Of a stretch of DNA of 64,000 bases, positions 4,832-30,704 are shown piece by piece (position 1 is the stretch's first letter; each line of letters begins with the position of its first letter). A program made the translations under genes and the position numbers. Location: IMG/VR virus record IMGVR_UViG_3300049211_000031, positions 64,946 to 128,945 of that record. One strand, written 5' to 3'. The notes under the pieces were generated by a model. The model did not search any database. It was not told the DNA's origin and was given only the letters and a program-made list of their open reading frames with translations. Source of the DNA: a virus (lineage: Duplodnaviria; Heunggongvirae; Uroviricota; Caudoviricetes).

Positions 4832-4865
4832 AAGTTCCGGCGAGCCTCATGTGCTCCCGGAACTT
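4832..4865. terminator. Bidirectional rho-independent terminator between convergent genes
   Basis: AAGTTCCGG-c-GAGC-ctcatgt-GCTC-CCGGAACTT: near-perfect 13-bp stem with a 1-nt bulge. It is flanked by an A8 run upstream and TTCCTTATTTTTATT downstream on the + strand, giving a U-tract on either strand. Confidence 0.8.
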
Positions 4866-9474: not shown

Positions 9475-9591
9475 TTAATTAAATAAATTTTGAAATGTAT
9501 TAGCTGCTGCCCAAAGAAGAGCAGCTATAAATACACCTATAGCTGCTCCCCAGACAATGTCGCCTATTTTTTGTTTTTGTTCTTTTGTCAT
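9475..9591 (-). CDS. Small membrane peptide (38 aa)
   Basis: Not in the ORF track (<60 aa). MTKEQKQKIGDIVWGAAIGVFIAALLWAAANTFQNLFN; start overlaps the upstream stop as TAATG; one transmembrane helix. Confidence 0.35.
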   Translation of the reverse strand: MTKEQKQKIGDIVWGAAIGVFIAALLWAAANTFQNLFN

Positions 9592-9902
9592 TATGCAAGA
9601 TGTTTACCTTCTACTCCCCGCTGAACTCTGTTTTTTGTTCTCTCGTTTAACCAAATAAGGGCTTGTTGAAGATTACTAATAGCATACTCGTTTTCCTTAC
9701 AAGGAAACTTCCCTTGTAAATATTCCATTCTGTTAATGAGAACTTCTAGCACATCTTCGTTAGTTGTACCGTCTGCTACTGTTACTAAGTATTGATCAGA
9801 ACCAACTAATTCTTTTTGAATGAATTGTAATGTTTGACCTTCTTTTTCTTTATTCTCGAAATTATCGAGTTCGTATTTGTGTCCTTCTACTTTTATTTTC
9901 AT
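9591..9902 (-). CDS. Hypothetical protein
   Basis: 103-aa ORF tiling the operon. Confidence 0.5.
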   Translation of the reverse strand: MKIKVEGHKYELDNFENKEKEGQTLQFIQKELVGSDQYLVTVADGTTNEDVLEVLINRMEYLQGKFPCKENEYAISNLQQALIWLNERTKNRVQRGVEGKHLA

Positions 9903-12678: not shown

Positions 12679-13143
12679 ATGGCTCAAAGAAAAAACAAAG
12701 AACGTAAACAAAAATTATTAAAATACAAAAAATCAAAAGTAATGAGTGAATCAAAAGCGCCTGAAATGAGACCGTTCCGCCAAGTACCAAACTGGTCAAG
12801 TACTGAAAAGTTTGATATAAATGGTGAAGAACTAGGTGCATTGTATAATTTTTTCAATATCTTCGCACCAGCCTATACTGCTTTCCAGCAAGTGTTTGCC
12901 CGTGGTTATAAGTCAGGTAAGGTGACAGTTTCATACGAGGATTTAGAGGGTAACCCTATTCATAACGATGAAATTGAGCAGTTTACACAGAAGTTGAATG
13001 AACATTTTCAGGCAGAGAATGCGAAAAAAGAAGGTAAAGTGATAGATGGAGATGTTCCATCGCAAAATGCGAAAATCGTGTCATTTACAGGCGAGAGATT
13101 AACTAAGGAACAAGTCGATTCGACTCTTCCATTAGAAGACTAA
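12679..13143 (+). CDS. Hypothetical protein
   Basis: The ORF track starts at TTG 12673; ATG at 12679 is the more likely start, 17 nt after the -7 element. Confidence 0.5.
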   Translation: MAQRKNKERKQKLLKYKKSKVMSESKAPEMRPFRQVPNWSSTEKFDINGEELGALYNFFNIFAPAYTAFQQVFARGYKSGKVTVSYEDLEGNPIHNDEIEQFTQKLNEHFQAENAKKEGKVIDGDVPSQNAKIVSFTGERLTKEQVDSTLPLED

Positions 13144-13553
13144 TGAAAGAAGTCTGGAAAGACATTAAAGGTTATGAGAAACTCTATCAGGTGTCAAATC
13201 TTGGTAGAGTTTCTTCTTTGCGTTTTAGCAAGCCTAAGATTCTTAAAACAAGAATTAAAAATGGTTATGAATATATTAATTTAGGTATTGATAATAAACG
13301 TAAAACCTTTCTAGTTCATAGACTTATAGCAGAAACCTTTATAGAAAATCCAAATCCTGATTTATATACACAAGTACATCATATAAACAGTATCAGAAAT
13401 GATAACCGAGTAGAGAATTTACTTTGGTGTACACAAATTCAGAACTTGGATTTTATAAATAGAAATCTTTTACATAAGGTAATCTCCAATATTCTCAGAA
13501 ATAATCCAGAAATTGTAGATATTCCTTCTTTATTACTCTATTTAAGCAAATAA
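13143..13553 (+). CDS. HNH homing endonuclease (NUMOD4 + HNH_3)
   Basis: 'YEKLYQVSNLGRVSS' NUMOD4 motif; 'VHRLIAETFIENP…VHHINSIRNDNRVENLLW' HNH_3 motif. Opposite orientation to the surrounding operon and adjacent to nrdJ. Confidence 0.8.
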   Translation: MKEVWKDIKGYEKLYQVSNLGRVSSLRFSKPKILKTRIKNGYEYINLGIDNKRKTFLVHRLIAETFIENPNPDLYTQVHHINSIRNDNRVENLLWCTQIQNLDFINRNLLHKVISNILRNNPEIVDIPSLLLYLSK

Positions 13554-14040: not shown

Positions 14041-15177
14041 TTAATTCTCCAATGCTACATCTGTATGAGTAGCCCTTAAAAATTTACGAATGTCTGTATT
14101 AAGTTCTTTTAAATATTGTTTTTCGATAACATCTTCTGGAAGACTACTGCGAAGGAATGCCTCATCAATGGCTGTTATTTTTTCCTGAGCATGTTTTAGA
14201 ATATCCTCAAGATTGTGTTTTCCGTGACGTATCTCTTTCAAATACTCAGCGTTCTGGCGTCTTACAATGAGTTCACCATATTCTGCAATATCAAGAGCAG
14301 TCTCAATTAGACGTATGCAATGAAGCATGTTTTTACCATCTATTTGTTGACCATGATTCTCAATATCTACATACCTCTGAGTATTACGGTTTTTCAACCA
14401 TGTTTGGTATTCGTTATAAGCCTTACAATGCTGGGTATATCCGTCTTTGTTAAAGTACATTATACCAATACCATACGCGTCTTCAGGAATAGAGGATAGA
14501 GAAATATCGTTAGATGTGCTCTCATCTTGTACTATTCCTCGAAACATATATTTAGCATCATGAAACAGGTTGTACAAATCCCGAGTATGAGGAATTGCGG
14601 CTACTCCCATTAGTTTAATCTGACTGAGAGCAAAGGTTTTCTTCATGGGGTAGGTTTTGTACTTTTCATCTGTACTTGGTTCCATTGAATTACTTATAAA
14701 GTAACAGAAGTCCAAAACAGATTTACGTTCAATCTTTTCTTTCTCCCAGTTCATTTTCTTATTTAGCCCTTTGGCCTTCTCAATCTGAGAGATAGCATAT
14801 CCTCCAAAAGAGAGTCTACACTTTTTAGTTAAGAAGCTATTTCTCTGACGTATTATCATATCAAACACCTTGTGTTTGTATATAATCATGTCTTCAGGAC
14901 TAAATAATAGTTCAAGAATGGTAGGGTTAGCCTTCTCAGCTAATTCCAGAAACCTTGACAACTCATAGGCTGTTTCATCTTTAGAAATGTTAATTTGTGG
15001 GCGTGGACCATTAATAAAATAGTCATCCGCGCTTTGAACATATATCCATTTCTTATCAATATCAGATCCTTCAACGTTTGTACCGTAGGCATGAGAGCCT
15101 ACGATACACCCGAAGATAATTGTATTTCCGTTGCCTAATTTAGGAAGATCAGGCGATGAATTCCTTGCTATTACCAT
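14041..15177 (-). CDS. Pol-beta-superfamily nucleotidyltransferase (function unknown)
   Basis: 'GCIVGSHAYGTNVEGSDIDKKWIY' is a G[GS]x9-13[DE]h[DE]h nucleotidyltransferase motif of the MNT / OAS / cGAS-DncV style; about 250 aa of helical C-terminus. Confidence 0.6.
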   Translation of the reverse strand: MVIARNSSPDLPKLGNGNTIIFGCIVGSHAYGTNVEGSDIDKKWIYVQSADDYFINGPRPQINISKDETAYELSRFLELAEKANPTILELLFSPEDMIIYKHKVFDMIIRQRNSFLTKKCRLSFGGYAISQIEKAKGLNKKMNWEKEKIERKSVLDFCYFISNSMEPSTDEKYKTYPMKKTFALSQIKLMGVAAIPHTRDLYNLFHDAKYMFRGIVQDESTSNDISLSSIPEDAYGIGIMYFNKDGYTQHCKAYNEYQTWLKNRNTQRYVDIENHGQQIDGKNMLHCIRLIETALDIAEYGELIVRRQNAEYLKEIRHGKHNLEDILKHAQEKITAIDEAFLRSSLPEDVIEKQYLKELNTDIRKFLRATHTDVALEN

Positions 15178-16255
15178 AATATTTTTCCTCCTTTATTTTA
15201 GGCATTTCTTTGTACTTTCTTCGTAATTTTTTCTTAGGATAAAGTGCTGGTATAGGAATACCATTTCTTTCAAGATATCTCCATAAACTGTCTCTACTTG
15301 CCCATTTGACACGAAGATTATCGCGATAATAGTCTGTATTTAGAATACGACTATCAGCATACTCATTTACCCATATACCACCAGATCGAGTTTTATTGAC
15401 TATAACACCATGTCTTGCATCATAAGCAGGAGATATTTGAGTACCATTAATAGTTACTATTAAGAAGCGAACGCTTTCTGCTGTCATGTTATAGTCTCTT
15501 CCGCCTATTGATCCAGTGGGTTGTAACTCAGCAGCATCATATACAGGACGTCTATTTCCGTCTATGTTTAACATGCCTGCTGGACGTACTCCTTGAATAG
15601 TATATCTTGCGATTTCGTCTGCTGTTGCGGATTCTACCTCATTATATACAATATTGCTAGTTGGAGTAGAAGGATTAGGTAATGGTGGAACAGGTATAGA
15701 ACGAGCACTGCGTCTTAATGGTTGAGGATCTGTTGTTGTTGGACGAGTAGTATTCCACACAGATACTCTTATAGATTGCTCTAACCTTTGTCTGAACTCT
15801 TCGTCGCTTACGTTACCAGCTATAATGCTTTCCAGTTCATCGCCTCTTTGTTGCTGAGGAATCTCTTCTGCCTGTTCTTCAGCGTCATCATCATCACTTA
15901 GACCTTCATCAAATATATTTTCACTATCTTCTTCATTTTCATCCTCTGGTATAGGAATAGCTGTACTTGTTTCTCCAGCAGTACCCCATATAAAGGCATT
16001 TTCAGGACGAATGTATGTCATTTGTCCTGTTGTTCTACGAACTTCTTGAGGTTGTTCTTCGACAACATCTTCATTGTGTATTGTAAAATTATCTCCATTG
16101 TATAGAGAGAAGGGCTCATTTACTCGGACAGTGTATGTGTCTCTCTCTGAGCCATTATCACTATCCTCTAATATATCTATAATTATACCTCTCATGGATA
16201 TATTACCTATCCGTGGGGTGAATCTTACATTTTGTTCAATTCGATAAAGTGACAT
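15149..16255 (-). CDS. Hypothetical protein with acidic low-complexity segment
   Basis: 368 aa; 'EDENEEDSENIFDEGLSDDDDAEEQAEE' tract and Pro/Thr-rich linker. Confidence 0.5.
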   Translation of the reverse strand: MSLYRIEQNVRFTPRIGNISMRGIIIDILEDSDNGSERDTYTVRVNEPFSLYNGDNFTIHNEDVVEEQPQEVRRTTGQMTYIRPENAFIWGTAGETSTAIPIPEDENEEDSENIFDEGLSDDDDAEEQAEEIPQQQRGDELESIIAGNVSDEEFRQRLEQSIRVSVWNTTRPTTTDPQPLRRSARSIPVPPLPNPSTPTSNIVYNEVESATADEIARYTIQGVRPAGMLNIDGNRRPVYDAAELQPTGSIGGRDYNMTAESVRFLIVTINGTQISPAYDARHGVIVNKTRSGGIWVNEYADSRILNTDYYRDNLRVKWASRDSLWRYLERNGIPIPALYPKKKLRRKYKEMPKIKEEKYYGNSKEFIA

Positions 16256-16258
16256 AAC

Positions 16259-16999
16259 TTATTGCTTTTCATTTGTGGGTTTTAACCAAAGATTGGTTTT
16301 TGTAAAAATATAGTTTCTAAGCTTTCCAAACTCTAGAAGGTAATTTAATGTTCTATTTGTGTTATATTTAAAGCATTTATATAACTCTTCTCGAATTCTT
16401 TCTTCGGAAACAACTCCAAATCTTTCCTCGTAATTGAAGCTGTGAAGCATTCTTTGAATGTTGTAATCAATTTCAAAACCTTTTGTAATTGCAAACCTCA
16501 CTGCTCTCAAAAGTCGTAGAGGGTCATCAGAGAAAGTAATGCTTCCGTCAATAGGAGTTCTTAATAACTTTTTCTTAATATCCTCTTGTCCTCCAAATGG
16601 ATCAATAATATTTCCTGTAAGAGGATCTTTTGCCATAGCATTAACTGTAAAATCTCTACGAGCTAAATCCTCCTCTAGAGTTCCAGGAACAACAATTGGA
16701 GTACGAGTTCCTTCCTCGTATCCTATTTCTCTTCGAGCTAATACAAAATCAGCAATGAGAACACCAGCAGCCATTTTAGCTCGTATTGTATAAGCTCTAG
16801 GTGTGATGAGATAAATCTCATATCCTCTTAATTTAATATCCTCAACAAGAAGATTAAACACATCTTCTACAGAAGAATTTTTTGTTATTCTATCAAAGTT
16901 TGGAACAGCAACATAATCAATGTCTTTGGATTCTATTCCAAGAAGCTCATCTCTTATCTTACCACCTACTTCATAGAAATGGAATGATCCTTTATACAT
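16259..16999 (-). CDS. tRNA nucleotidyltransferase (class II CCA-adding / poly(A) polymerase family, head domain)
   Basis: 'VGGKIRDELLGIESKDIDY' (GGxVRD motif) and 'LARRDFTVNAMA' (RRD motif) are diagnostic of class II CCA enzymes; 246 aa, a minimal version. Confidence 0.8.
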   Translation of the reverse strand: MYKGSFHFYEVGGKIRDELLGIESKDIDYVAVPNFDRITKNSSVEDVFNLLVEDIKLRGYEIYLITPRAYTIRAKMAAGVLIADFVLARREIGYEEGTRTPIVVPGTLEEDLARRDFTVNAMAKDPLTGNIIDPFGGQEDIKKKLLRTPIDGSITFSDDPLRLLRAVRFAITKGFEIDYNIQRMLHSFNYEERFGVVSEERIREELYKCFKYNTNRTLNYLLEFGKLRNYIFTKTNLWLKPTNEKQ

Positions 17000-17225
17000 T
17001 TTTAATAATTTGTACTGTCTGATAATTATTTTTGTGTGCTATGTCCAGAAAAGCTGCAAGGTTGAACAGAGCTTGGTGAGAATTAGCATCACCAATTCTC
17101 ACATCTGTTCTTATCATCCAATATCTCTCGCAATTCTTTCCTCCTCCAACATCCTCAGAGGTCATCCAGTTTAAAACATCTTCTGTGGTTTGTACCTGCG
17201 AGAAAGGTAGTTGGAAAATTCTCAT
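16992..17225 (-). CDS. Hypothetical protein
   Basis: 77-aa ORF. Confidence 0.4.
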   Translation of the reverse strand: MRIFQLPFSQVQTTEDVLNWMTSEDVGGGKNCERYWMIRTDVRIGDANSHQALFNLAAFLDIAHKNNYQTVQIIKNV

Positions 17226-17235
17226 TTTGTAGAGT

Positions 17236-17424
17236 TTAACATGAATAATCGCATTTTCCTGTAATTTGGCAATATGTGCTGCAATATCCAGATGTATTAC
17301 CCTTTATTTGACTAATGCATTCTTCGTTTTTGCAAACATGTACGTCCTCGGATTTACAATGCTTTTCAAGTTCTTCCTCTTTACAGTATTCTCCACAGAA
17401 ATAACATTCGTATTTGTTATTCAT
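17236..17424 (-). CDS. Cys-rich zinc-ribbon-like small protein
   Basis: 62 aa with more than 12 Cys in CxxC pairs. Confidence 0.45.
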   Translation of the reverse strand: MNNKYECYFCGEYCKEEELEKHCKSEDVHVCKNEECISQIKGNTSGYCSTYCQITGKCDYSC

Positions 17425-18014
17425 CGTACATTTGTTTCAGATGAATGATGGTCTGGAAAAGCAGTTGGGCGATCTTCTAATAGAAGCGCTACTTCATCAA
17501 ATGAGAATGGACGATATTCCTTAAATATTCGGTAACAATTATCTATCCCAACATCCATAGATCTTCCCCATGGAGTTCTTTCAAGACTTCCATGGGAATG
17601 CCCATAAGCATGAAAATATCCTTTGTGGCTACCTTCCCAAACACGGCAAGAATAATGATGAAGATAAATACCTTGTTTATTTACATAGATGAGTTTTCCT
17701 GCACTAATTGATGAGAAGAATTCTGAATATTTAGGGATGTGTTCATCGTGGTTTCCTAAAACAATATGGATGTTTTCGCAAACAATACGTCGCCGATAAT
17801 CTGGGATTTTGTGGTGCCCTCCCATAGCAAAGTCTCCTACAATATAGAGAACATCTTTTTGTCCTACAACTTGGTTAATATTGTCAATAATAAGAGCATC
17901 CATTTCTTCTACAGAATCAAAGTTTCGATACCCTGTTTTCCATGTGGATGTTTTTGGACCAGCTATGTTTCGATGTCCTAGATGTAAATCCGATGTTAAA
18001 AAAATATTCTGCAT
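17421..18014 (-). CDS. Calcineurin-like metallophosphoesterase (putative 2',3'-phosphatase of RNA repair)
   Basis: 'DLHLGH', 'GDFAMGG', 'GNHDE' metallophosphoesterase motifs. The ORF-track start at 18116 overlaps the upstream gene; the internal ATG at 18014 (MQNIFLTSDLHLGH) abuts the upstream stop. Confidence 0.75.
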   Translation of the reverse strand: MQNIFLTSDLHLGHRNIAGPKTSTWKTGYRNFDSVEEMDALIIDNINQVVGQKDVLYIVGDFAMGGHHKIPDYRRRIVCENIHIVLGNHDEHIPKYSEFFSSISAGKLIYVNKQGIYLHHYSCRVWEGSHKGYFHAYGHSHGSLERTPWGRSMDVGIDNCYRIFKEYRPFSFDEVALLLEDRPTAFPDHHSSETNVR

Positions 18015-18015
18015 A

Positions 18016-18297
18016 CTAATAATTATAATGAAATAGAAGTATAGCTTTAATGTATCTTCGATCAATAAGCATAACACCATTATAGGCGCACATAACTTTG
18101 AGATAATTTCCATCAACTCTCATTTTCGTAGGCTTTATGTAGATGTCATCTTTTCTTTTAGCCCACTCCTTTACTGTATGGGAGGCTGCTGGCATATATT
18201 TTACAGCTTTTGGAGACAACCAAATATGACCTCTCATCTGAAGGTTAAAATGCTTACCGTAAAACTCTCGGACCCTAGCAAATTCTTTAGAAGTCAT
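18016..18297 (-). CDS. Hypothetical protein
   Basis: 93-aa ORF. Confidence 0.45.
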   Translation of the reverse strand: MTSKEFARVREFYGKHFNLQMRGHIWLSPKAVKYMPAASHTVKEWAKRKDDIYIKPTKMRVDGNYLKVMCAYNGVMLIDRRYIKAILLFHYNY

Positions 18298-18802
18298 TTG
18301 AAATCAAGTGTTTGTATTTGTCCTTGTTAATTTTGTTATAACTTTGGTACTTTTCTTTCATAACTTTGAAAGGAACCCATTTACCTGTCTTTACTCTACG
18401 CCATATATTGCGTAAATTAGCCTTCCATAAAGGAATATCCAGGAATTTTACATAAATACTCATCTTCTTGCTTGAGTGCATTCCTCTGAAGATTGTGAGA
18501 TATTTATCTATGCCAGATTCTCTACAATGAGTGTTATCAAGGATAATTACAGCCTTTTTGAAAGTAGAGGCTACCCCCATTTGTTTATAAAACTCCTTAG
18601 TAACTTCTGCTTCTTTCGCTTTAGAATAGTCATACTTCTTGCCGTATTTCGCTAAACGGATAGTATCACGACTTATTATAATGACAGGAGCACAATTATA
18701 CTTTAAATATAAATATTCTGTCATTCTCTTACTCCATGTACTCTTGCCTGCACATGGCATACCTGAGAGGATAATTAGCACTAAATTGTCTTGTTCTTGC
18801 AT
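18287..18802 (-). CDS. P-loop polynucleotide 5'-kinase (T4 Pnk-like kinase domain)
   Basis: Walker A 'SGMPCAGKST', 'IISRDTIR' (catalytic-Asp RD motif of Pnk), 'VIILDNTH' (DNTN-like Walker B). Confidence 0.65.
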   Translation of the reverse strand: MQEQDNLVLIILSGMPCAGKSTWSKRMTEYLYLKYNCAPVIIISRDTIRLAKYGKKYDYSKAKEAEVTKEFYKQMGVASTFKKAVIILDNTHCRESGIDKYLTIFRGMHSSKKMSIYVKFLDIPLWKANLRNIWRRVKTGKWVPFKVMKEKYQSYNKINKDKYKHLISNDF

Positions 18803-18814
18803 AGATGAAAAGTA

Positions 18815-19120
18815 TTAAAGGTCGTTAAAACTATATGTTGCTACGGTTTCTCTTTTACGGCTATTAATTCGCCTGTTTAAGAAAACAAATGGAGTACCTA
18901 TTTTATAATAGGCCTTTAGGGCAGTACCGTCCCAATTGTTTTCTATTTTGTTTAATTCAATAAGGTGTAGAAATTTGTCACGAATTTCTTTACGTTGAGC
19001 ATAGGGCAAGGTTTTGGGAATCTTTATTGCTGCAAAACCTCTCTGCAACACAAGTTTAGCCTGTGTTGCAGATTCTTCTAAAATGAAAATGTTCATGTTA
19101 TTCTGATTGTTGTGTCTCAA
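18815..19120 (-). CDS. Hypothetical protein
   Basis: 101-aa ORF. Confidence 0.45.
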   Translation of the reverse strand: MRHNNQNNMNIFILEESATQAKLVLQRGFAAIKIPKTLPYAQRKEIRDKFLHLIELNKIENNWDGTALKAYYKIGTPFVFLNRRINSRKRETVATYSFNDL

Positions 19121-20501
19121 TATCTATCTCTCCTTTGTCCAATTCTTTTGTTTCTCGCTCAGTAAAGCGGAAAGACTTAAGCTTGTAGGCGTCATAATCT
19201 AGACCTTCAACTCTTACAACGAAACCTTCTGCAGGTACTTTGTTTTTACATATGGTACAGTCTTTCTCCATATTGTAAGAATTGCTTAGTTTTTCAAGTA
19301 ATTCAGCTTGCCATTTGTCAAGTTCCATAGGATATACGGATAAGGTTGTACTATCTTCTATCATATCAGATAAGATTTCTCTTGCCTTACCATAGAAGAA
19401 TAGGGGGACAGCCTTCAAGCCGTTTCTTTTACACCATTCTTGTACTTGAAATGCTGAGAATTCATACTTCTGTCCAGCCCAGTTCGTATGAGTGATACGA
19501 TAGATGTATACACCATAGTGTACATCTTCTTCATAGTCTTCATAGTCTCCTTGACTAGGCCATTCGAAACCTTTTGATAAACGTTCTCTTTGTTGGTAAC
19601 CATAATCATAGCCTTTTTGAATAAGCTCTCCGGTTGGAGTGTAGCCCACAATTTCGGCATAAATAGTCATACCGTCAGGCATGTAATCTTTCAGGTAGTT
19701 AGCGGCGTATTTCCACAGGTCTTCTTTGTAATAATGATTGTAATTCTTGCTATTATCGTCATTTTTGATGACCTTACGAGAAGAATAAATCATGTCATAC
19801 TCAGTTTCAACAAATTGTACACCAAAGAACTTCAATAATTTACCAAACCAACCCAATTTCCTCTTAACCAATATTTTAGATGTTACACTCGACGTACCAT
19901 GTAGTTTATTAGTAATAGAGATTATTGAATCTGGAGTGATTTTATGGATGTTCTTTCCAAGGTGAGAAGTATCTACGTGAAATGCAAATTGACCATCTAC
20001 AACACGAGACTCTTTAGGTTTCTTAGCTTGCGCAGCACGAGCCATACCTCTACCATAGTTTGTGATTATAATGTACTTCTCACAGATTTTAACACCGTTG
20101 ATGTGATCAAAGGTGTCTCCTGCTTTTAGGGTAGCAAGATCCTTAACATCTGCGAATTTCAACAAGGAGTAAATTGGAATTACAAAACCTTGTGAGCGAT
20201 GTCCCCTGAATTTTACACAACGAATACGACCATTTTCTTCAAAGTAGCCTTTTTCGTCAATATTAGCATTCAATGTATTATCTTTGAATAAATTATTCTC
20301 TGATAAATACTGAACAGAAAGTTTTGTTTCTACTGGAAAATAGAGTACTTTGTCACCTATTTTTGTATCTTTACCAACGATGACAAGATTGCCAAAGATA
20401 TTTGTATGAACTACATTGTTACAGTTATCGAGAGGAATTATATTCTTAATCTCTACAACAGTAGCTGCATAATTCTCGTTAATTGGAGCCTTTAGAATCA
20501 T
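19098..20501 (-). CDS. ATP-dependent RNA ligase (Rnl2 / DraRnl-like, with N-terminal extension)
   Basis: Motif I 'ITNKLHGTS' (KxHGT adenylyl-lysine motif of the Rnl2/DraRnl family), motif IV-like 'AEGFVVRVEG', motif V-like 'YKLKSF'; 467 aa. Confidence 0.65.
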   Translation of the reverse strand: MILKAPINENYAATVVEIKNIIPLDNCNNVVHTNIFGNLVIVGKDTKIGDKVLYFPVETKLSVQYLSENNLFKDNTLNANIDEKGYFEENGRIRCVKFRGHRSQGFVIPIYSLLKFADVKDLATLKAGDTFDHINGVKICEKYIIITNYGRGMARAAQAKKPKESRVVDGQFAFHVDTSHLGKNIHKITPDSIISITNKLHGTSSVTSKILVKRKLGWFGKLLKFFGVQFVETEYDMIYSSRKVIKNDDNSKNYNHYYKEDLWKYAANYLKDYMPDGMTIYAEIVGYTPTGELIQKGYDYGYQQRERLSKGFEWPSQGDYEDYEEDVHYGVYIYRITHTNWAGQKYEFSAFQVQEWCKRNGLKAVPLFFYGKAREILSDMIEDSTTLSVYPMELDKWQAELLEKLSNSYNMEKDCTICKNKVPAEGFVVRVEGLDYDAYKLKSFRFTERETKELDKGEIDIETQQSE

Positions 20502-20734
20502 ATGTTTTCGATTTTGTAAGTACTATTTTCTGTCTTGAAGGTGTACTCGTCTATAATCTCCGTGACAGGAGATGTTAGAAGACCTGCTATGTAGAAGCGT
20601 TCTCCTATTATTGGACCATATTTGAAGATTCCTTCTTTAGTATACCCAACGTTAATACCATTTGGGTGTTCTCCAAAGAAGCGGTTGTCGCTGATTTTTG
20701 TTAGGCGTACTCTCTTGCTGCTTTTTCCTATCAT
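20498..20734 (-). CDS. Hypothetical protein
   Basis: 78-aa ORF. Confidence 0.4.
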   Translation of the reverse strand: MIGKSSKRVRLTKISDNRFFGEHPNGINVGYTKEGIFKYGPIIGERFYIAGLLTSPVTEIIDEYTFKTENSTYKIENI

Positions 20735-20858
20735 TTGTTGTTATTAATAATTCAAAATTAAAATCCCCACATTTTGGACATTTATCACGCACAAAAGTTG
20801 CATCAGGATGACTGAATGCGTGTCCGCAACAGTCACAAAAATATGTTGGAATTAACAT
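20652..20858 (-). CDS. Zinc-ribbon small protein
   Basis: 'CDCCGH…CPKCGD'; overlaps the previous ORF, so one of the two start sites is probably mis-set. Confidence 0.35.
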   Translation of the reverse strand: MLIPTYFCDCCGHAFSHPDATFVRDKCPKCGDFNFELLITTNDRKKQQESTPNKNQRQPLLWRTPKWY

Positions 20859-20874
20859 GGTATTAGTTTAAATG

Positions 20875-20899
20875 AAAAATCCCCGGCAATTACCGGGGA
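20875..20899 (-). terminator. Rho-independent terminator (minus strand)
   Basis: Perfect 7-bp stem TCCCCGG-taattg-CCGGGGA followed by TTTTT on the minus strand. Confidence 0.7.
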
Positions 20900-20922
20900 C
20901 TAAGATGGTTTTTAGATTGGTC

Positions 20923-21241: not shown

Positions 21242-21418
21242 TTATAGTTTTAAAAGTTTAACAAATTTCCGTTCTTTTCTTCCAGTATAGCCATCTGTTT
21301 CTGTATACCATAGAATTAATTCCTTATCTTTTGTCCAGTCTAATTTTACTTCTAAGGCTATAGCTACAATTATTACGAAGAAGGAGTAGAAAAATAAAAT
21401 CATTATCCCTAAACTCAT
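21242..21418 (-). CDS. Small membrane protein (58 aa)
   Basis: Not in the ORF track. MSLGIMILFFYSFFVIIVAIALEV…; ATGA overlap with the upstream stop. Confidence 0.4.
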   Translation of the reverse strand: MSLGIMILFFYSFFVIIVAIALEVKLDWTKDKELILWYTETDGYTGRKERKFVKLLKL

Positions 21419-22323
21419 AAAATGTTTGTTATTGTGTCTTTGTTAATCCTCCTGTGTCCAACATTGTATCGTTGGTTATGAGGAGCATCAAAGAGATAAC
21501 AGAACGTATTACTATTGTTGTTTATGTTTAGAAATGTTTCGTATTTATCATCTATAAACACTTCTACTTCGTAGTTTGTACAGGCAGTAATTTTATCATT
21601 AGTAAATACAACAGGCGCTATTGGATATTTATTGATGGTAAATAACCAATCCAGAGTAGACTGTTTTGTACGAACATTCCTTGATGTAATATAAACAACT
21701 GGTTCTACTGGCAAATCTTCTGGTTTTACTATCATCTTAAGATTTCTATAGAAGTTTTGGTCTTCTATAACTTCCTCATACCTCTCTGGAAAGTCTCTGT
21801 CATATATCCAAGAAGAAGGTAGTGGAATGTTAAATCTTTCGCAATAGGCCCCTAGAAAATCTGCTAGTACCTCATCAATATCTATGCCAACTCGTACTTG
21901 CTTGTTTAATAGTGTCGGTCTGTCATCCCCTTGAGGATAAATTTTATAATATTCTGTCAGAAAGGCAGCATTACACATAACATGAGCAGAGTGAAGCAGT
22001 CCTGTCTCAGGGTCATAGTCTTCTCCTCGCTCAATTGCATTTAAGTGTCGCTTTAATGGACCAATAATACGGCTCCATTTCATACCTTTCATCCAGTTGT
22101 TGGGAGCATATTTTTTGGCTCCAAAGGTAAGAACTTTTGCAAGCTCATTAATAGCATTAGGAGGAAGTAAATCATGACGCACTTTATCTGTATCATGTCT
22201 AGTACCTCCCATTTTCTTTAAGCTAAATTCTGGAATGTCACTCATATCTATAAACTTCAAATTTAGGTTCAGGAATTCCCCAAAGTTCATCGTCAGGACC
22301 AAAAACTGTGGGATTTTTACCAC
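21415..22323 (-). CDS. Two-domain dNTP pyrophosphohydrolase (DUF5664-like) fused to HAD 5'(3')-deoxyribonucleotidase
   Basis: N-terminal 'HDLLPPNAINELAKVLTFGAKKYAPNNWMKGMKWSRIIGPLKRH' resembles the dATP/dGTP-diphosphohydrolase N-domain. C-terminal 'VGIDIDEVLADF' is the HAD DxDxV nucleophile motif of NT5C-type deoxynucleotidases. The true start is probably ATG at 22245. Confidence 0.65.
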   Translation of the reverse strand: MVKIPQFLVLTMNFGEFLNLNLKFIDMSDIPEFSLKKMGGTRHDTDKVRHDLLPPNAINELAKVLTFGAKKYAPNNWMKGMKWSRIIGPLKRHLNAIERGEDYDPETGLLHSAHVMCNAAFLTEYYKIYPQGDDRPTLLNKQVRVGIDIDEVLADFLGAYCERFNIPLPSSWIYDRDFPERYEEVIEDQNFYRNLKMIVKPEDLPVEPVVYITSRNVRTKQSTLDWLFTINKYPIAPVVFTNDKITACTNYEVEVFIDDKYETFLNINNNSNTFCYLFDAPHNQRYNVGHRRINKDTITNIL

Positions 22324-22864: not shown

Positions 22865-23942
22865 TAAAAAACTTTAATTTTATTTTACCTGTTTCGTACA
22901 ACTCTTTTGGTTCATTCCATACCTCATTTTTAATGTGCCATCCAATTTCGTCAAGAATTTGTCTCCATCCCTTGAATTTTTTGGAACCATACTCATAAAT
23001 GTAGAGGTCACCCTCGTCAAATCCGTAGATGTATGGAACCTTATTATCACGATCAATTACAATATCAAATGGTGTATGGATGGTAAAATCCTTAAAAACT
23101 CCTCCTTTGAATGTTTGTAGAAATCTTTGCACCATAAATCGGTAGAAAGACATTTGTCCGCCGTATTCGTATTTCTCAGCATTCTTTGGAAACTCATTGA
23201 CATCGTAAGCAGTTTTTAAGTCAGGAAGATATACAGCTTTTTCAGCAGGAACAATACGGATAATATCTACGGCAGCTTTAAGTGCTATTATGACATTCTC
23301 GTAGTTGTAATCTTCATAGATTTCCTGTTGATGTAAAAGTATTTCTCCTTCTTGTTGGACGAAATATGACATACTGCGAGGATGGTTTCTTAGATTTTCT
23401 ACCATTTGGTTTGCATCAGCACTTTCAATAGTAGAAATAATAGAACGGCCACTTGCTTCAGCTAAATGTTGAAAATATCCACTTCCATCTTCATACACAT
23501 TATCGAGAATACGACTTGTGCTCCATTTGTCTCCACCGTATTTAATTTCTCTTGCAAACTTTATAGTGAGGTCATTAAATTCGGAAAGATCATGAATGTT
23601 TGGAATATATAGTGGTTCTGGCACATTACCTTGCTCGTTTAATAGTATTTTGTTGTCTATGACCTCTTTTGCCTTTCTATAGACACGTTCTACTATGAGC
23701 TTTACTTTATCACCTGGAATATTTGGTTCATACCCCGGTATATAAAAACGCTCATTGAGTAGGGCTGGTTCAAATGCTAGAGTATCAACCAGAGAACCAA
23801 AAGTGAGACTATCTGTAGTTTCCTCATCATCGGAAACTTTGTCTATGTATATCTCCTTGAATTTGCTTAGGCTCATTTTTCGAAAAGCCTTAATAGCACT
23901 TTGAGAGATAGCAGACACTTGTCTATACTCTGATTTTTGCAT
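22857..23942 (-). CDS. Hypothetical protein
   Basis: 361-aa ORF, no confident motif; lies next to the ligase cassette. Confidence 0.5.
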   Translation of the reverse strand: MQKSEYRQVSAISQSAIKAFRKMSLSKFKEIYIDKVSDDEETTDSLTFGSLVDTLAFEPALLNERFYIPGYEPNIPGDKVKLIVERVYRKAKEVIDNKILLNEQGNVPEPLYIPNIHDLSEFNDLTIKFAREIKYGGDKWSTSRILDNVYEDGSGYFQHLAEASGRSIISTIESADANQMVENLRNHPRSMSYFVQQEGEILLHQQEIYEDYNYENVIIALKAAVDIIRIVPAEKAVYLPDLKTAYDVNEFPKNAEKYEYGGQMSFYRFMVQRFLQTFKGGVFKDFTIHTPFDIVIDRDNKVPYIYGFDEGDLYIYEYGSKKFKGWRQILDEIGWHIKNEVWNEPKELYETGKIKLKFFND

Positions 23943-24310
23943 TATTTGTGTGTTTTTGTATTATGACAGTCTTTGCATAGTATTTGATATCCTTCTTCAG
24001 CGAATAATCGCTCTACAAAACCTTTCAAATCATCGGAGTTTCTCAGACTACCAACTTCTTCTATATGATCTACCTCTATTTGTTTAGAAGCGAACCAGTT
24101 TTTGCATTGTTCACATTGGTATTCCCACTTTTGACGAGTGTTTTTTCCTTTGTAAGGTCTTCTAGCAGCATTTTTTGCATTCTGAATTGGTCTCCAATAC
24201 ATGCTTCTTCTTCTTAGAGCACTTCTTATCATACTCCAAAAAGTGGATTCTGTCATAGTTCCTGCATTTCTTGTTTTAGGAACCTTTTCTTTTTTAATTT
24301 TTTTAGGCAT
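23942..24310 (-). CDS. HNH endonuclease
   Basis: 'CEQCKNWF…VDHIEEV…CKDCHNTKTHK' HNH zinc-finger nuclease core. Confidence 0.8.
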   Translation of the reverse strand: MPKKIKKEKVPKTRNAGTMTESTFWSMIRSALRRRSMYWRPIQNAKNAARRPYKGKNTRQKWEYQCEQCKNWFASKQIEVDHIEEVGSLRNSDDLKGFVERLFAEEGYQILCKDCHNTKTHK

Positions 24311-24360: not shown

Positions 24361-25875
24361 TTAGAAGAGCCAGGAAACCCCCTCATAAGTGAACACATAT
24401 TCCTTATCGTTCTTCATTTCATTCTCGCTAATATAGTCACCGTTCGCCTTATCTCTTGAAAAATAAGCTTTTCTGTCAGCGACATATGCTTTTAAATAAG
24501 ATGAAAGGAATTGAGCATGGTCGCTCTTGAACGTTTCTCCATAATAGTCTAAGATGGAATTCAGATTGATAGGTTCTGCACTAGAAAGGATAGCGTCTGC
24601 ATTTTGGGCAGCATATTGGCAGATGGCATTACAGATGAATAACCAATTTACCATTTTCTGTCCATTCAGTGTACAGTGGTGTAGGCGAAACTCTACAGTT
24701 CTCCTTGGAGAGAAGAACATATTCATAAGATTTAGCCAAAAATACCGTCTCTTACGGTTCCATTTCTGGGACTGTTGATGAGTGTTTGTTACGCGATTGA
24801 AGTTATTATCTGGTGGAACGTCATCATTAAGCCATGTAGCTATACGATAATAAGCTTCATCAACGTATTGAGTGTATTCTTCCTTTTTCATTTTAGGGTT
24901 AAGAAGACCTGTACCAAGTTTGCGCAGCTTTTGACAATAATCCTGTTTTTTAACACCTTTACAATTTGTCTTGTAATAAGGAAACATTGTATACAACTCA
25001 TCCTGAATACGAATAGCAAGAGCGTAGAGGGCTACAATGAACAAACGATCCTCAGGAAGGTTACCAAGGTGGAAGTGTAAACTACACTTAATATCTGTAG
25101 TAGTCCGCTTGCACAGCTCACTAGACAGATATTTTAGGTTCAGCAATCCTCTTGCACCCTCCATAGGTACAGTAACGAATTCGGCATTGTCAATACTTCC
25201 ATCACGACATATTACAACACCTGTACGGTTTTGAATATGATCAGGAAGATGACCTCTGGAAGTTTCTACTTCCATACCAAATGTTGTAGTTCCCAGAAGC
25301 TTTCCAAAGCGTAGAGCCGCAGCGGATATTTTCATTGGATAATTCTTGAAGGCGTCAATCTTCTGTACAAATTCTTCAGAATTATCTTCAATGTTATATC
25401 CTTTGTGTGTGTGAACTTTACGACTTTCGATTCTGCTCATTCTTTCAAGCTCTTTAGGACTAAGGTTTTTACGGCACATCCATGAGCCAGAAGATAGATC
25501 TTCAGCGAAGTCATGTTTTACCAACATTTTTTCGCTAAATGTTTTCACCTGTCCATATTCAGGAATAGTTACTGTTAAGTTATTATACTTATTTTCAGTA
25601 AAGTACCCAAATATAGCAGTTCCGTCAGCCTTAAATCCTGTTACACCATAGACCAGAGGAGTGTCCTTTATGAGTACGTATTTCTCTTTTTCATGATCAA
25701 AAGCTATTAACTTTGAATCAAACCTGTACCACCTTTTGTTAATTTCAAAGCAGTCTTCTCCTTTTACATAGAATTTATCTCCTATGCGACGACAATTTCT
25801 ACGGTATTCTGTAATACCGCGAACAGTCTTTACTTTTCTTTGTTTTAAGTTTGGATTGTCTTTGAACCGTATCAT
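24361..25875 (-). CDS. Glutamine-synthetase-like amidoligase (COOH-NH2 ligase), paralogue 1
   Basis: 'FGMEVETSRG' (G-x-E-x-E metal-binding strand) and 'CSLHFHLG' (H-x-H) mirror the same two blocks in the 29336–30145 protein; the pattern resembles the amidoligase_2 family. Confidence 0.55.
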   Translation of the reverse strand: MIRFKDNPNLKQRKVKTVRGITEYRRNCRRIGDKFYVKGEDCFEINKRWYRFDSKLIAFDHEKEKYVLIKDTPLVYGVTGFKADGTAIFGYFTENKYNNLTVTIPEYGQVKTFSEKMLVKHDFAEDLSSGSWMCRKNLSPKELERMSRIESRKVHTHKGYNIEDNSEEFVQKIDAFKNYPMKISAAALRFGKLLGTTTFGMEVETSRGHLPDHIQNRTGVVICRDGSIDNAEFVTVPMEGARGLLNLKYLSSELCKRTTTDIKCSLHFHLGNLPEDRLFIVALYALAIRIQDELYTMFPYYKTNCKGVKKQDYCQKLRKLGTGLLNPKMKKEEYTQYVDEAYYRIATWLNDDVPPDNNFNRVTNTHQQSQKWNRKRRYFWLNLMNMFFSPRRTVEFRLHHCTLNGQKMVNWLFICNAICQYAAQNADAILSSAEPINLNSILDYYGETFKSDHAQFLSSYLKAYVADRKAYFSRDKANGDYISENEMKNDKEYVFTYEGVSWLF

Positions 25876-25880
25876 AAAAA

Positions 25881-28430
25881 TTAACTCCTTTGTTTAACGT
25901 ATGATATTATATCCTTCCTTAGTGCTGGCTCTTCATGTTTGTCTGTTAATTCCATTAACTTTGAGGTTAGGGAATCTACAGCAATATAAACAGCATTAGC
26001 TACTTCCTGAGCGAAATCATCTTCTTCGATGGCCTGCAGTTCATCAGAATGTTCACGAATTCTGAATGCAAGGTTAACGATTTCTCCAAACTGATAATTT
26101 CTTTCTTCCTTGTCGTCCTCAAAGGCATTAGAAACATCAGCAACTGGCCTCCATGTTTCCTCATCCTCTAATATCTCTTCATCTTCTAGAATTCCCTCAG
26201 AGGACATACGTAGTTTATGCTCTTTTTCTATTTCAGTTTCTGTTAGATGAGGTTCTTTATCGTCCTTTGGGTCGGCAATTACGCCTTCTTCTGTACACAC
26301 CCAGCTTTCAGGTATTTCATCATCAGAGCTGATAATGGACGGAACGGTAGTAAAATCCTTTGGATTGTATTTAATATTAGGAGCCATCATGATTGGTTCT
26401 GGAATGTGAGGAAAATTTACACAGCAAGAATCTTCGGCATAATCATCATCTATCGAATCGTCGTGGATATCGTCTTCATCATACATATTGCCTTCAGGGT
26501 TTTCTTTAGCAATGAGTAGATAAGTAAGGACATCCTTGTAATTTTTATCGTTCCAGTTGTCAATCACAGTAACGTCATTTTCAATACATTCTGCAAAGAA
26601 TAAATTCAAATAGACATCAACTGTTTCATCATAGACATTTTCAATCTTACAGACTCCTGTATCCATTAACACATCCGCTATGTAATAACGAATAGCACGT
26701 CTCTCTTCATTACTGAAGATTCCTTCAGCTTCCTCGATACTAGAGAACTTACGATAGAAATTCTTGAGATCAAGATCATTTGCGGCCTGAGTAGGAACTT
26801 CCTCAAATGGAATTTCTTGTTGTTCCTTGTTGCGTTTTTCATAAGCCTCTCTCATATCATCTATTGTTTGTTGAACCTCATCAATTGTTTTACTATCACC
26901 TCCCTTAATAATGCTTAAATGAGGATGTTTAGTTTCTACAGCGAGGGGGCTGGCTTGCCACAAGGACTTTCTTTCATCAATTAAGGCTTGTGTATTCACC
27001 ATTTCCTCTTCTTCAGCTACTGTACCCTTAGCATTCTTAATTTTATGCATCAGACCATCCTTGATGATGTAATGACGATCAGAGAACTTAGGAGTGAATC
27101 CCATGTTGTGACACATTACTTCATTATGGAACCAGCGGTATTTAGAATAAGCAGGTACCTCCTTAGCTCGTGTGTTAATGTCTTGGCGAGTGTGACATAC
27201 AGGATATTCTGAATATCGACTTATGTACATTGCAAAATTCCAGTTGGGATTAGCAATATTTGGGTCAATTTTAGCAGTTTTGTAAGCTCCCTCGCTCTTT
27301 ATCATTATACCCTCAATAAAGTAATAGTTAAACCCTTGTTTTCTTTCAAGAGACACTTTTCCTTTATTATTGATGTAGTACTCACCATGCATTGGTGTGA
27401 TAGCATCGTTATCTACTAACCAGTAACGGCCAAGATGATAGATAACACCGGTAGAGAATCTGTATCTTCCTGCACGGTGAGGAACTGTTTCCCACCATAT
27501 CATCGGAATAATCTTATCCAAATCCGGCGCTAAGGAACCACTAGAATAGCTATTACCCACGGAACTATTAGTCCCATGCGACGCCATGGTTGTAGGGGTT
27601 GTCGTATTCGTCCTCGTAGTAGTGCTTGCCGGACTTGCCCCTCCTCTTGTGGTTCCTCCTGTGTTTGGGGAGTGAGTGTAAGTAACGTTGATGTCTCCTC
27701 TTTCAATATAATGGTTATTACCAGTGATAGCGCCATCTTGTAAACGCATTACAACATTCTGAGGTACTTCACTGATGCTATCAGTGTCATAATCAGAAAT
27801 TGCAAACAGGCTCTTTTCGATAGAGCTAAAGTACACACCCTCTTTAGTTTGAAGATAGAACAAAGGTCTTTCTACCATTGTGTCACCGTGCCGAGTGACT
27901 TTAGAGGCGCCTTTGTAAATATACATACTATTAGGCCTGTCCTTATGAGCCATTAAAAGAGCTGCCCAACCTTCGTACTGTTCAAGAATGCTAAATCCTA
28001 CTTTATCTATAAGATGAGCTAATCCATGACTGTCTACACTGATACCTGTATGATTAACTCCATATTTATTACACAGGGGCCAGATATTTCTGATTTGACC
28101 ATTGTGAGCTAGTACAAAGTTATTATTAATGACAAATGGATGGGCATTGTCAGCAGTATGCGAACCTACAGTTGCGGCTCTAGTGTGTCCAATAATATTG
28201 AAATCTCCAGTTTCCATTGCATTAGGAAGAAGAAATTTAGCAATGAAATCAGAGAATAATTTTTGGTCATTTACACCTTTTACCACCCGATTGTTTATGT
28301 AAATACCACATGAGTGTTTACCTCGGTCGATGTTATACAACCCAAGGATTTTGATCTTGTTCATAGCTAACCTTGCCATAGTTTCATTCATTATAGCAGG
28401 GTTACCATTAAAGCCGAATAGTCCGCACAT
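25881..28430 (-). CDS. Class II (Ntn) glutamine amidotransferase domain protein with Thr-rich linker and long acidic C-terminal region
   Basis: N-terminus 'MCGLFGFNG' gives the Cys2 nucleophile of class II GATases. 'GGTTRGGASPASTTTRTNTTTPTTMASHGTNSS' is a linker. The C-terminal ~350 aa is extremely Asp/Glu-rich. Confidence 0.7.
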   Translation of the reverse strand: MCGLFGFNGNPAIMNETMARLAMNKIKILGLYNIDRGKHSCGIYINNRVVKGVNDQKLFSDFIAKFLLPNAMETGDFNIIGHTRAATVGSHTADNAHPFVINNNFVLAHNGQIRNIWPLCNKYGVNHTGISVDSHGLAHLIDKVGFSILEQYEGWAALLMAHKDRPNSMYIYKGASKVTRHGDTMVERPLFYLQTKEGVYFSSIEKSLFAISDYDTDSISEVPQNVVMRLQDGAITGNNHYIERGDINVTYTHSPNTGGTTRGGASPASTTTRTNTTTPTTMASHGTNSSVGNSYSSGSLAPDLDKIIPMIWWETVPHRAGRYRFSTGVIYHLGRYWLVDNDAITPMHGEYYINNKGKVSLERKQGFNYYFIEGIMIKSEGAYKTAKIDPNIANPNWNFAMYISRYSEYPVCHTRQDINTRAKEVPAYSKYRWFHNEVMCHNMGFTPKFSDRHYIIKDGLMHKIKNAKGTVAEEEEMVNTQALIDERKSLWQASPLAVETKHPHLSIIKGGDSKTIDEVQQTIDDMREAYEKRNKEQQEIPFEEVPTQAANDLDLKNFYRKFSSIEEAEGIFSNEERRAIRYYIADVLMDTGVCKIENVYDETVDVYLNLFFAECIENDVTVIDNWNDKNYKDVLTYLLIAKENPEGNMYDEDDIHDDSIDDDYAEDSCCVNFPHIPEPIMMAPNIKYNPKDFTTVPSIISSDDEIPESWVCTEEGVIADPKDDKEPHLTETEIEKEHKLRMSSEGILEDEEILEDEETWRPVADVSNAFEDDKEERNYQFGEIVNLAFRIREHSDELQAIEEDDFAQEVANAVYIAVDSLTSKLMELTDKHEEPALRKDIISYVKQRS

Positions 28431-28460
28431 AATTGCTTGTTGTTATTTTAATTATTTAAA

Positions 28461-30145: not shown

Positions 30146-30704
30146 ATTTGTACTTTGTAGGAAGAAGTTCTACTTCTTTAGAATAACTCCATCTGAACTT
30201 TGAACAAGTAGCTCTTTTACCTTTACAACAAGCAATAATATGTGCTGTACTTTTTAGGTTTAACTCTCTAACTACTTGAGAAATGCTTTCCCATTCTTTT
30301 AAAAAACTTCCATCTAAACCAAATTGAAATACTCTTTTCTTTTTCTTTCTGGAAGACATAAGTTTTTTAGACTCCTCTGTATGTTTTCTATATCTTCCTC
30401 TATGAGCTGTTTGCAAAATATTATACTCAGGTTTGTTTTCCTGAATATAATAATTCTCTCTTTCAAGAATTGTAGAATAGTCACAGTACTCTAACACTTG
30501 AAATATGAAATTTCCTTTTCCATACTTATTCCAAGCATTTTGAAGATGAAGTGAGTGATGAATATTTCTATAAAGAGCAGACTTATGATTATTCCATCTT
30601 ATTCTTGAGTTTTTACAACTTCCTATGTAACAATGATTATTTAGAATGTTTACTATTCTATAAATACATGACTCCATATGTATATTTTTTTCACAAATAT
30701 ACAT
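30126..30704 (-). CDS. GIY-YIG homing endonuclease
   Basis: 'CIYRIVNILNNHCYIGSCKNSRIRWNNHKS…NAWNKYG…FQVLE…ERENYYIQE…YNI' is the GIY-YIG (I-TevI-like) catalytic domain plus a C-terminal DNA-binding region. It is inserted between cassette genes. Confidence 0.85.
   Translation of the reverse strand: MYICEKNIHMESCIYRIVNILNNHCYIGSCKNSRIRWNNHKSALYRNIHHSLHLQNAWNKYGKGNFIFQVLEYCDYSTILERENYYIQENKPEYNILQTAHRGRYRKHTEESKKLMSSRKKKKRVFQFGLDGSFLKEWESISQVVRELNLKSTAHIIACCKGKRATCSKFRWSYSKEVELLPTKYKYEKKIS

Follow-up and report, generated by a model that had tools for sequence, protein, structure and literature searches.

What does a phage gain from carrying an RNA ligase, a polynucleotide kinase, a phosphoesterase and a tRNA nucleotidyltransferase in one small cluster of genes? 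This question is raised by an uncultured phage of about 129 kb (Caudoviricetes; IMG/VR record IMGVR_UViG_3300049211_000031), of which we analysed positions 64,946 to 128,945, a stretch of 64,000 nucleotides (nt) that is called the window in the following. The repair enzymes are encoded on the minus strand at about 14041-20501 of the window, in roughly 6.5 kb. We think that this cassette is probably a phage RNA-repair kit; the enzymatic activities, the substrate, the order of the steps and a counter-defence purpose are what we infer from the protein sequences and their gene context. Family membership, intact catalytic residues and conserved gene linkage are directly supported, and the fold of the ligase is supported through a structure model.

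A first-pass annotation had read four of these genes as a module for healing and sealing cleaved RNA, and this core reading is supported by homology, by intact motifs and by the repeated association of the genes in other phages. All four are found at the positions it gave, on the minus strand, as open reading frames (ORFs) with profile matches and complete catalytic signatures that include the motifs it had quoted. The profile searches it suggested returned RNA_ligase (9.6e-8), AAA_33 (1.4e-10), Metallophos (6.3e-8) and PolyA_pol head (6.5e-20). The E-values of the enzyme matches and the gene order shared with related phages are far beyond chance. The extent it proposed, 16259-20501, is right for the four enzymes but its boundary does not hold, because an RlaP gene and an orphan gene also belong to the module. 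The genes are, in order of coordinates:

14041-15177, minus strand: RlaP nucleotidyltransferase (PF10127, 2.4e-20, 73.7 bits against a cut-off of 23; phrog_388, 4.8e-49)
15149-16255, minus strand: orphan protein of 368 amino acids (aa), which precedes RlaP and overlaps the RlaP start by 29 nt
16259-16999, minus strand: predicted minimal class II tRNA nucleotidyltransferase of the CCA-adding type, head and neck only, 246 aa (PolyA_pol head, phrog_24229)
17421-18014, minus strand: stand-alone calcineurin-like metallophosphoesterase of COG4186/phrog_547, 197 aa (Metallophos, phrog_547)
18287-18802, minus strand: stand-alone P-loop polynucleotide 5'-kinase of the T4 Pnk/PSTK/Pnkp1 type, 171 aa (AAA_33, KTI12, phrog_505)
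19098-20501, minus strand: ATP-dependent RNA ligase, by its model of the Rnl5 (NgrRnl/DraRnl) type, 467 aa (Pfam RNA_ligase, PHA02142 OB, phrog_968)

The repair enzymes and the orphan protein

Besides RNA_ligase, the ligase matches phrog_968 ('RNA ligase', 2.7e-65) and, with residues 13-110, the PHA02142 OB domain (2.3e-5). Its six motifs (I, Ia, III, IIIa, IV and V) are invariant in an alignment of 41 homologues; KLHGTS occupies residues 199-204, and the motif residues are K199/H201/G202, R242/K246 (SSRKVIK), E283, Y334/R335, E425/G426 and K440/K442. The family profile finds the catalytic domain of T4 Rnl2 (1.4e-4) and the N-terminal OB domain of NgrRnl (residues 8-108; 5e-4). An AlphaFold2 model of the ligase (pLDDT 86.4) matches NgrRnl (5cot) over its full length with an E-value of 1.2e-14 and a TM-score of 0.69, T4 Rnl2 comes second at 6e-7, and Rnl3, Rnl1 and Trl1 are far behind. 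The protein consists of an N-terminal OB domain and a nucleotidyltransferase domain and ends at motif V plus one helix, with no C-terminal domain. Since the best match of the model is to NgrRnl over the whole length, with T4 Rnl2 and the other families behind, the ligase as modelled is of the Rnl5 type.

NgrRnl of Naegleria and DraRnl of Deinococcus have the same domain order as the phage ligase, provide its best structural match and share all of its motifs. The resemblance has limits, however, as the identity is only about 15% and the phage ligase exceeds them in length by about 130 residues and has inserts at 145-170, 250-256 and 300-328. Weak structural matches of the OB domain to tRNA-binding domains of the Trbp111 type are a hint only. 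The ligase family includes 1078 metagenomic homologues and 379 phage records, with cluster L mycobacteriophages and phages of Gordonia, Prevotella, Xanthomonas (XacN1) and Synechococcus (B23) among them. Inserts of about 1 kb with homing endonucleases (LAGLIDADG, GIY-YIG with NUMOD1, and DUF559-like) interrupt the Rnl5-like ligase gene in the IMG/VR relatives L080 (8816-9995), L092 (10885-12967) and L094 (8900-9896); the ligase gene of the window is unbroken.

The kinase matches KTI12 (3.3e-9) and phrog_505 ('polynucleotide kinase', 5e-17) in addition to AAA_33. Its motifs are a P-loop, GMPCAGKST, at residue 14, SRD at 44-46, DNT at 89-91 and RNIWR at 131-135, and across 16 homologues the P-loop (G14-K20), D46, R49, D89 and R131-N-x-x-R135 are invariant or nearly so. 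The family profile finds PSTK (2.3e-12), T4 Pnk (1ly1; 1.5e-7) and the Pnkp1 subunit of the Pnkp1-Rnl-Hen1 complex (2.1e-7). The description of the kinase as T4-Pnk-like stands, with its RD, DxT and RNxxR motifs aligning with the RD, DTN and RNSKR segments of T4 Pnk, and all 242 of its phage matches are pseT or polynucleotide kinase genes. No HAD_PNKP match was found in the 171 residues, and there is no fused C-terminal 3'-phosphatase. A kinase-HAD fusion does exist in two relatives, L007 and MT835470.

For the metallophosphoesterase the most likely start is MQNIF at 18014, rather than 18116, as the genes of the relatives are called from there. The Metallophos match reaches 33.7 bits against a cut-off of 21.5, the phrog_547 match has an E-value of 1.2e-47, and the protein has the full set of five metal-binding motifs (DLHLGH at 9, GDF at 60, GNHD at 87, HHY at 119 and GHSH at 138). 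A phosphatase architecture like that of bacterial Pnkp, which had been suggested for this gene, was not borne out: it encodes a stand-alone member of COG4186/phrog_547, and a single-sequence search of the PDB at E <= 1 matched only ApaH and the Aquifex hypothetical protein aq_1665, with no Pnkp chains among the matches. From its gene context we predict that it is the 3'-end healing enzyme. The family has 1881 phage records. Unrelated phages provide examples of such a context: in Schickermooser, a cultured E. coli phage, an Rnl1 ligase and a pseT-like kinase are the direct neighbours of a member (28% identity, E 5e-19), and in Stenotrophomonas phage Moby one lies near a tRNA array and pseT; Staphylococcus phage 812 has a member with no neighbours of this kind annotated. 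Sister phages carry a second metallophosphoesterase of 240-275 aa, which is lambda-phosphatase-like and lies immediately upstream of the ligase (L001 7285-8004, L002 7169-7996, L004 7217-7999). In the window the region 20498-20900 holds small ORFs only, the lambda-phosphatase-like gene having been lost.

The fourth enzyme was proposed to be a minimal class II CCA enzyme, and its 246 residues do contain the complete head and neck motifs: GGKIRD at 12, DIDY at 26, RRD at 114, DDPLR at 158 and ERIREEL at 200. It matches phrog_24229 ('tRNA nucleotidyltransferase') at 5e-55 and aligns with residues of about 10-255 of CCA-adding enzymes that are 390-490 aa long (E 3e-21), coming to its own end at 246, without the tRNA-anchoring domains. 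The short form seems to be the normal state of this family, as the PHROG profile itself is 245 positions long. In the short phage family, which has 496 phage records and includes Cellulophaga phages, GGKxRDE, DxD, RRD, DDPLR and ERIREEL are invariant, and motif D is DDPLR rather than EDxxR. The product is thus predicted to be an enzyme of the CCA-adding type, whose nucleotide specificity is not readable from the sequence. Within the window neither tRNA genes nor known RNA families were found. A further contig, L100, overlaps positions 60532-64000 of the window exactly and runs 9.7 kb further, and it contains 18 tRNA genes at 693-4848. These genes sit about 5-9 kb past the right end of the window (at about 68.8-73.0 kb), which brings the total of the phage to at least 18, and none of the 18 has an encoded 3' CCA.

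In RlaP the Pol-beta GS...DxD signature is intact (GSHAYGTNVEGSDID at residues 27-41). The gene is co-directional with the rest of the cluster and is separated from the ligase by 3.9 kb, and a comparison of the protein with solved structures gave no match. RlaP enzymes add one or two nucleoside monophosphates to an RNA 3'-OH, partly restore the aminoacylation of tRNA that lacks a nucleotide, and have been proposed as an antidote to nucleases such as RloC (PMC12776372). Two relatives, L114 (6366-7484) and L113 (1076-2170), encode an RlaP homologue without the DxD carboxylates, in which GSDID is changed to DSSVK or DEPVT.

In its model the orphan protein has an N-terminal Tudor/SH3-like barrel, which is followed by an acidic disordered linker and by a C-terminal domain that is modelled with confidence but matches no known fold, and it ends in a basic tail that is almost invariant; part of the conservation of this tail is due to the overlapping RlaP start region. 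Fold searches matched the N-terminal barrel alone and gave no functional lead. With 52 clusters among 1.84 billion representatives, this is a rare family. In all ten contexts compared (the window, L001, L002, L004, L020, L021, L042, L112, L113 and L114) the orphan gene lies directly upstream of RlaP with an overlap of 26-29 nt. L114 keeps the pair too, without any of the four genes for ligase, kinase, COG4186 phosphoesterase and CCA enzyme; the contig of L113 is too short to judge their presence. This constant pairing, and its persistence where the repair block is missing, suggest that the orphan protein is probably a partner of RlaP. A bolder version is that it is a dedicated and previously unrecognised partner, an RNA- or ribosome-binding adaptor with a new C-terminal fold that steers nucleotide restoration to the right broken RNA, and that the Rnl5 cassette repairs damage to RNA helices in which nucleotides are lost. 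We regard this version as unlikely. If true, it would mean that the cassette mends damage that classic repair of the T4 type cannot fix.

Gene neighbourhood and transcription unit

How often do these genes travel together? A scan of IMG/VR with a profile of the ligase found 80 loci, unlike a scan with the single ligase sequence, which gave no match. These and the loci obtained before were dereplicated at 70% ligase identity, which gave 55 clusters. Partner genes were sought within 10 kb of the ligase with home-made profiles, and the counts are lower bounds:

Any phosphoesterase: 28 of 55 clusters
Pnk-type kinase: 26 of 55 clusters
COG4186-type phosphoesterase: 17 of 55 clusters
HAD-Pnkp-type phosphatase: 14 of 55 clusters
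COG4186 and HAD-Pnkp types together: 3 of 55 clusters
RlaP: 13 of 55 clusters
CCA-type enzyme: 7 of 55 clusters

Relatives with 57-76% ligase identity keep the order ligase, small ORF, kinase, phosphoesterase, (CCA), orphan, RlaP. In the distant relatives L007 and MT835470 the same ligase is paired with a kinase-HAD Pnkp of the T4 type, a case of non-orthologous displacement, from which we conclude that the stand-alone kinase and metallophosphoesterase occupy the Pnkp slot in the cassette. At the DNA level the only relationship to cultured or deposited phages was one match of 272 bp.

The four enzymes of the first-pass annotation are not strictly adjacent, as four small ORFs without a family match are interleaved. 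These ORFs, and a hairpin 5' of the repair cluster, are:

16992-17225, minus strand: ORF of 77 aa, with no Pfam, PHROGs or NCBIfam match; a 77-aa ORF is at the same position in L001 and L015
17236-17424, minus strand: cysteine-rich ORF of 62 aa with 12 Cys, between the phosphoesterase and the CCA-side genes, with no match in the same three databases
18016-18297, minus strand: small ORF of 93 aa, likewise with no match; an ORF of equal length is at the same position in L001
18815-19096, minus strand: small ORF that follows the ligase immediately, 93 aa when counted from the ATG, likewise with no match
20878-20901, minus strand: terminator-like hairpin; its stem has 10 bp, 6 of them G-C, and a T-rich tail follows

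L001, the nearest relative, has no gene at the position of the cysteine-rich ORF. The ORF at 18815-19096 has homologues in the close lineage only, with 42-65% identity in L001, L002 and L004. It was considered as a conserved small partner of the ligase, and this idea was rejected, as the small ORFs that distant relatives have there are non-homologous.

The genes of this minus-strand run are co-directional, with intergenic spacings of -29 to +12 nt, and the run stops at the plus-strand genes at 13553. The hairpin at 20878-20901 is a possible 5' boundary of the repair transcription unit. Given the tight packing of the genes behind this terminator-like hairpin, the cassette at 14041-20501 is most likely a single transcription unit. 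A scan for sigma-70 promoters found 34, which is not above the 37 expected from shuffling. The surroundings of the cassette include genes for nucleotide metabolism and recombination, such as ribonucleotide reductase (RNR), dUTPase, a RecA-like protein and a PD-(D/E)XK nuclease.

A proposed pathway and the alternatives

How might these proteins work together? In the pathway that we propose, a ribonuclease of the host or of a competitor would cut a tRNA or another structured RNA and leave 2',3'-cyclic or 3'-phosphate and 5'-OH ends. The metallophosphoesterase would strip the 3' phosphate and the Pnk-type kinase would then phosphorylate the 5'-OH. If the 3' side of the break had been trimmed, RlaP would restore one or two nucleotides, probably with the orphan protein encoded upstream of it as its partner. 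The Rnl5-type ligase, adenylylated on K199, would seal the 3'-OH to the 5'-phosphate, most likely where a helix holds the ends. The CCA-type enzyme would complete the 3' ends of tRNAs, which would cover both the repair of trimmed ends and the maturation of the 18 CCA-less phage tRNAs. The cassette may in this way serve as a counter-defence, as the first-pass annotation had proposed.

Several observations weigh against this pathway or parts of it. Rnl5 enzymes seal nicks in duplexes with an RNA 3'-OH strand and their physiological substrates are unknown (PMC4408790, PMC5397189), and NgrRnl, the reference enzyme of the type, is feeble on single-stranded RNA (PMC4408790). By analogy, the nick preference of the Rnl5 type and its weakness on single strands mean that classic repair of the anticodon loop may not be assured. 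Anticodon-loop cuts of the PrrC, RloC or colicin type, which the first-pass annotation had in mind, would thus not be an obvious substrate for a sealer of duplex nicks. The nearest solved relative of the phosphoesterase is a hypothetical protein, and its family is without a characterised member. The three clusters in which a COG4186 phosphoesterase co-occurs with a HAD phosphatase suggest that the former may have another task than simple 3'-dephosphorylation. The 18 CCA-less tRNAs would explain the CCA enzyme without any repair role, and the close relative L004 is without a CCA gene. Lastly, 21 of the 55 ligase clusters have no partner gene within 10 kb, which is partly a matter of narrow profiles and incomplete contigs.

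The alternative that comes closest to an even chance, falling a little short of it, concerns the CCA-type enzyme, which might mainly mature phage tRNAs instead of repairing breaks, its location reflecting a general grouping of tRNA-care genes. With 18 phage tRNAs that lack an encoded CCA, plain maturation would be an equally good job for it, and one that the first-pass annotation had not taken into account. In L008 tRNA genes lie scattered between those for the ligase, the kinase and the CCA enzyme, L004 does without a CCA gene while keeping the remainder of the cassette, and a CCA gene is near the ligase in just seven of the 55 clusters. On the other hand, MT835470 has its CCA gene between ligase and Pnkp, yet there is no tRNA gene in its 117-kb record. 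CCA-adding enzymes mature and repair 3' ends by one chemistry, so that the roles are not mutually exclusive, and it is likely that the enzyme has both. Doubts about the phosphoesterase lead to a further alternative, in which it is no healer of RNA ends but degrades cyclic-nucleotide immune signals, or is a protein phosphatase or nuclease, and the healing of 3' ends is left to something else or is unnecessary. This uncharacterised family is very widespread, with many of its 1881 phage records lacking an adjoining ligase, as in Staphylococcus phage 812; it shares some clusters with a HAD phosphatase; and calcineurin-like phage enzymes have been proposed to target cyclic nucleotides (PMC7824862). 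We nevertheless consider this alternative unlikely, as the phosphoesterase repeatedly adjoins RNA ligases of two families and Pnk kinases, and beside the kinase, which is itself without a HAD domain, the window offers no second candidate for a 3'-phosphatase.

The substrate might also be different altogether. The ligase, kinase and phosphoesterase could act on nicks at RNA-DNA junctions, such as ribonucleotide patches, in the replication or repair of phage DNA, and not on tRNA. Rnl5 enzymes do accept hybrids among nicks with an RNA 3'-OH strand, Deinococcus becomes more sensitive to ionising radiation when it lacks DraRnl (PMC4408790, PMC5397189), and the cassette sits among the RNR, dUTPase, RecA-like and PD-(D/E)XK nuclease genes. 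But RlaP and the CCA type, two RNA-specific 3'-end nucleotidyltransferases, are encoded in the same unit, the ligase has a T4-type Pnkp as its partner in other phages, a distinct DNA ligase is encoded close by in relatives, and the closest structural relatives of the kinase act on RNA or tRNA, all of which makes action on DNA very unlikely in our view. The least probable alternative, with a negligible chance of being right, is the one that the first-pass annotation named against itself, namely that the kinase is a 5-hydroxymethyl-dU DNA kinase (5-HMUDK) that opens thymidine hypermodification. Amidoligase and glutamine amidotransferase (GATase) genes do lie 4-8 kb away (24361-28430), and such genes are found near 5-HMUDK genes in some metavirome contigs (PMC8989533). 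At the level of sequence this alternative is refuted: the kinase has no match to PF18748 (5-hmdU DNA kinase) at E <= 0.01, a profile that M6 gp54 matches at 7.7e-18, an hhalign comparison of its profile with gp54 aligned the P-loop alone with a probability of 5%, its phage matches are pseT or PNK genes throughout, and none of the neighbouring proteins that were tested was an amino acid:DNA transferase (aGPT-Pplase). An RNA-repair kit thus remains the reading that we prefer.

Surrounding genes, host and known repair systems

Other parts of the window contain further genes that may be of interest. Four genes at 24361-30145 encode an Amidoligase_2 amidoligase, a protein of 849 aa that contains a class II glutamine amidotransferase domain, an ATP-grasp protein resembling RimK and a COOH-NH2 ligase, and look like a peptide or metabolite ligation system. 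At 21415-22323 the N-terminal domain of a dATP/dGTP diphosphohydrolase (PF18909, 7.6e-34) is fused to a 5'-deoxynucleotidase (NT5C), which suggests manipulation of the nucleotide pool. A 103-aa gene beside the ribonucleotide reductase (9591-9902) has a precomputed Acb2_Tad1_hairpin Pfam match on an identical JGI contig of 128,928 bp (Ga0498795_000009), and its product may be an anti-CBASS or anti-Thoeris signal sponge. Free-standing genes that resemble homing endonucleases are found among the early genes, with NUMOD4 and HNH at 13143-13553, HNH at 23942-24310 and GIY-YIG with a NUMOD-like domain at 30126-30704. There is also a long run of small early genes, including a protein of the uracil-DNA-glycosylase superfamily (34102-34806) and an SPFH/Band 7 protein (51972-52763).

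Which host does the phage infect? A motif resembling a Shine-Dalgarno sequence precedes 13 of the 114 ORFs of the window, which equals the background of 12.5%. An exception to this scarcity is AAGGAGG before RlaP, which lies inside the upstream coding sequence. Genes poor in Shine-Dalgarno motifs fit Bacteroidota and are no proof of a host; a Bacteroidota host, which the first-pass annotation had assumed, would be consistent with them. A host search in genome collections with RNR as query found nothing. A scan of genome collections with the ligase profile found only contigs of metagenome-assembled genomes from mixed phyla, probably binned phage DNA, and named no host.

How does the cassette compare with systems already described? 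To our knowledge, that of phage T4 is the only phage RNA-repair system that has been tested in depth. With Pnkp, Rnl1, Rnl2 and the RlaP homologue NrdC.11, T4 resembles the cassette in healing the 3' and 5' ends before sealing and in having its own tRNAs. The kinase shares the catalytic motifs of T4 Pnk, and an RlaP-family gene is found in both (PMC12776372). The differences are that T4 fuses its kinase to a HAD phosphatase and uses the loop-sealing Rnl1, whereas the cassette has a stand-alone kinase, a calcineurin-type phosphatase candidate, an Rnl5-type ligase and an additional CCA-type enzyme. The bacterial Pnkp-Hen1 and Pnkp1-Rnl-Hen1 systems likewise combine a kinase, a calcineurin-type phosphatase and an ATP-dependent ligase, and Pnkp1 is among the matches of the kinase (2.1e-7). 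The cassette differs from them in that it is without Hen1, its domains are unfused, its phosphatase candidate is of another calcineurin subfamily and its ligase is Rnl5 and not Rnl4.

Among phages, the phAPEC8-like E. coli phages are similar in that the same phosphoesterase family adjoins an RNA ligase and a short pseT-like kinase (Schickermooser gp115-gp113), but their ligase belongs to the Rnl1 type, and neither RlaP nor a CCA enzyme is encoded in the immediate neighbourhood. Within 5 kb, the uncultured human-gut phage MT835470 combines a kinase with an Rnl5-like ligase that is 38% identical and a short CCA-type enzyme that is 57% identical. In contrast to the cassette, its kinase is a T4-type kinase-HAD fusion, and no RlaP or metallophosphoesterase was found in the stretch examined.

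Phage RNA-repair gene sets were reportedly catalogued by comparative genomics by Burroughs & Aravind in 2016. The kits described by Iyer et al. in 2021 contain an ATP-dependent ligase, PNK, a phosphoesterase (in few cases calcineurin-like), RlaP and a CCA enzyme, and are seen as counter-measures to defences that cleave tRNA (PMC7824862). That account focuses on Rnl1, Rnl2 and RtcB, with other ligases only as rare versions in actinophages, and differs from the present case, in which five enzymes are encoded in one 6.5-kb unit of a non-jumbo phage of 129 kb. The cassette is therefore a well-equipped but ordinary example of the phage kits already described. Particular to it are the Rnl5-type ligase, the unfused healing enzymes, the head-and-neck-only CCA type and the orphan protein that is probably a partner of RlaP.

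The role ascribed to the RNA-repair kits of phages is to counter tRNA-cutting host defences. The cassette leaves this picture unchanged and adds to it an example that is compact and complete and is made up of parts that have been studied less. It is also a convenient source of genes for the study of Rnl5 ligases and COG4186 phosphoesterases.

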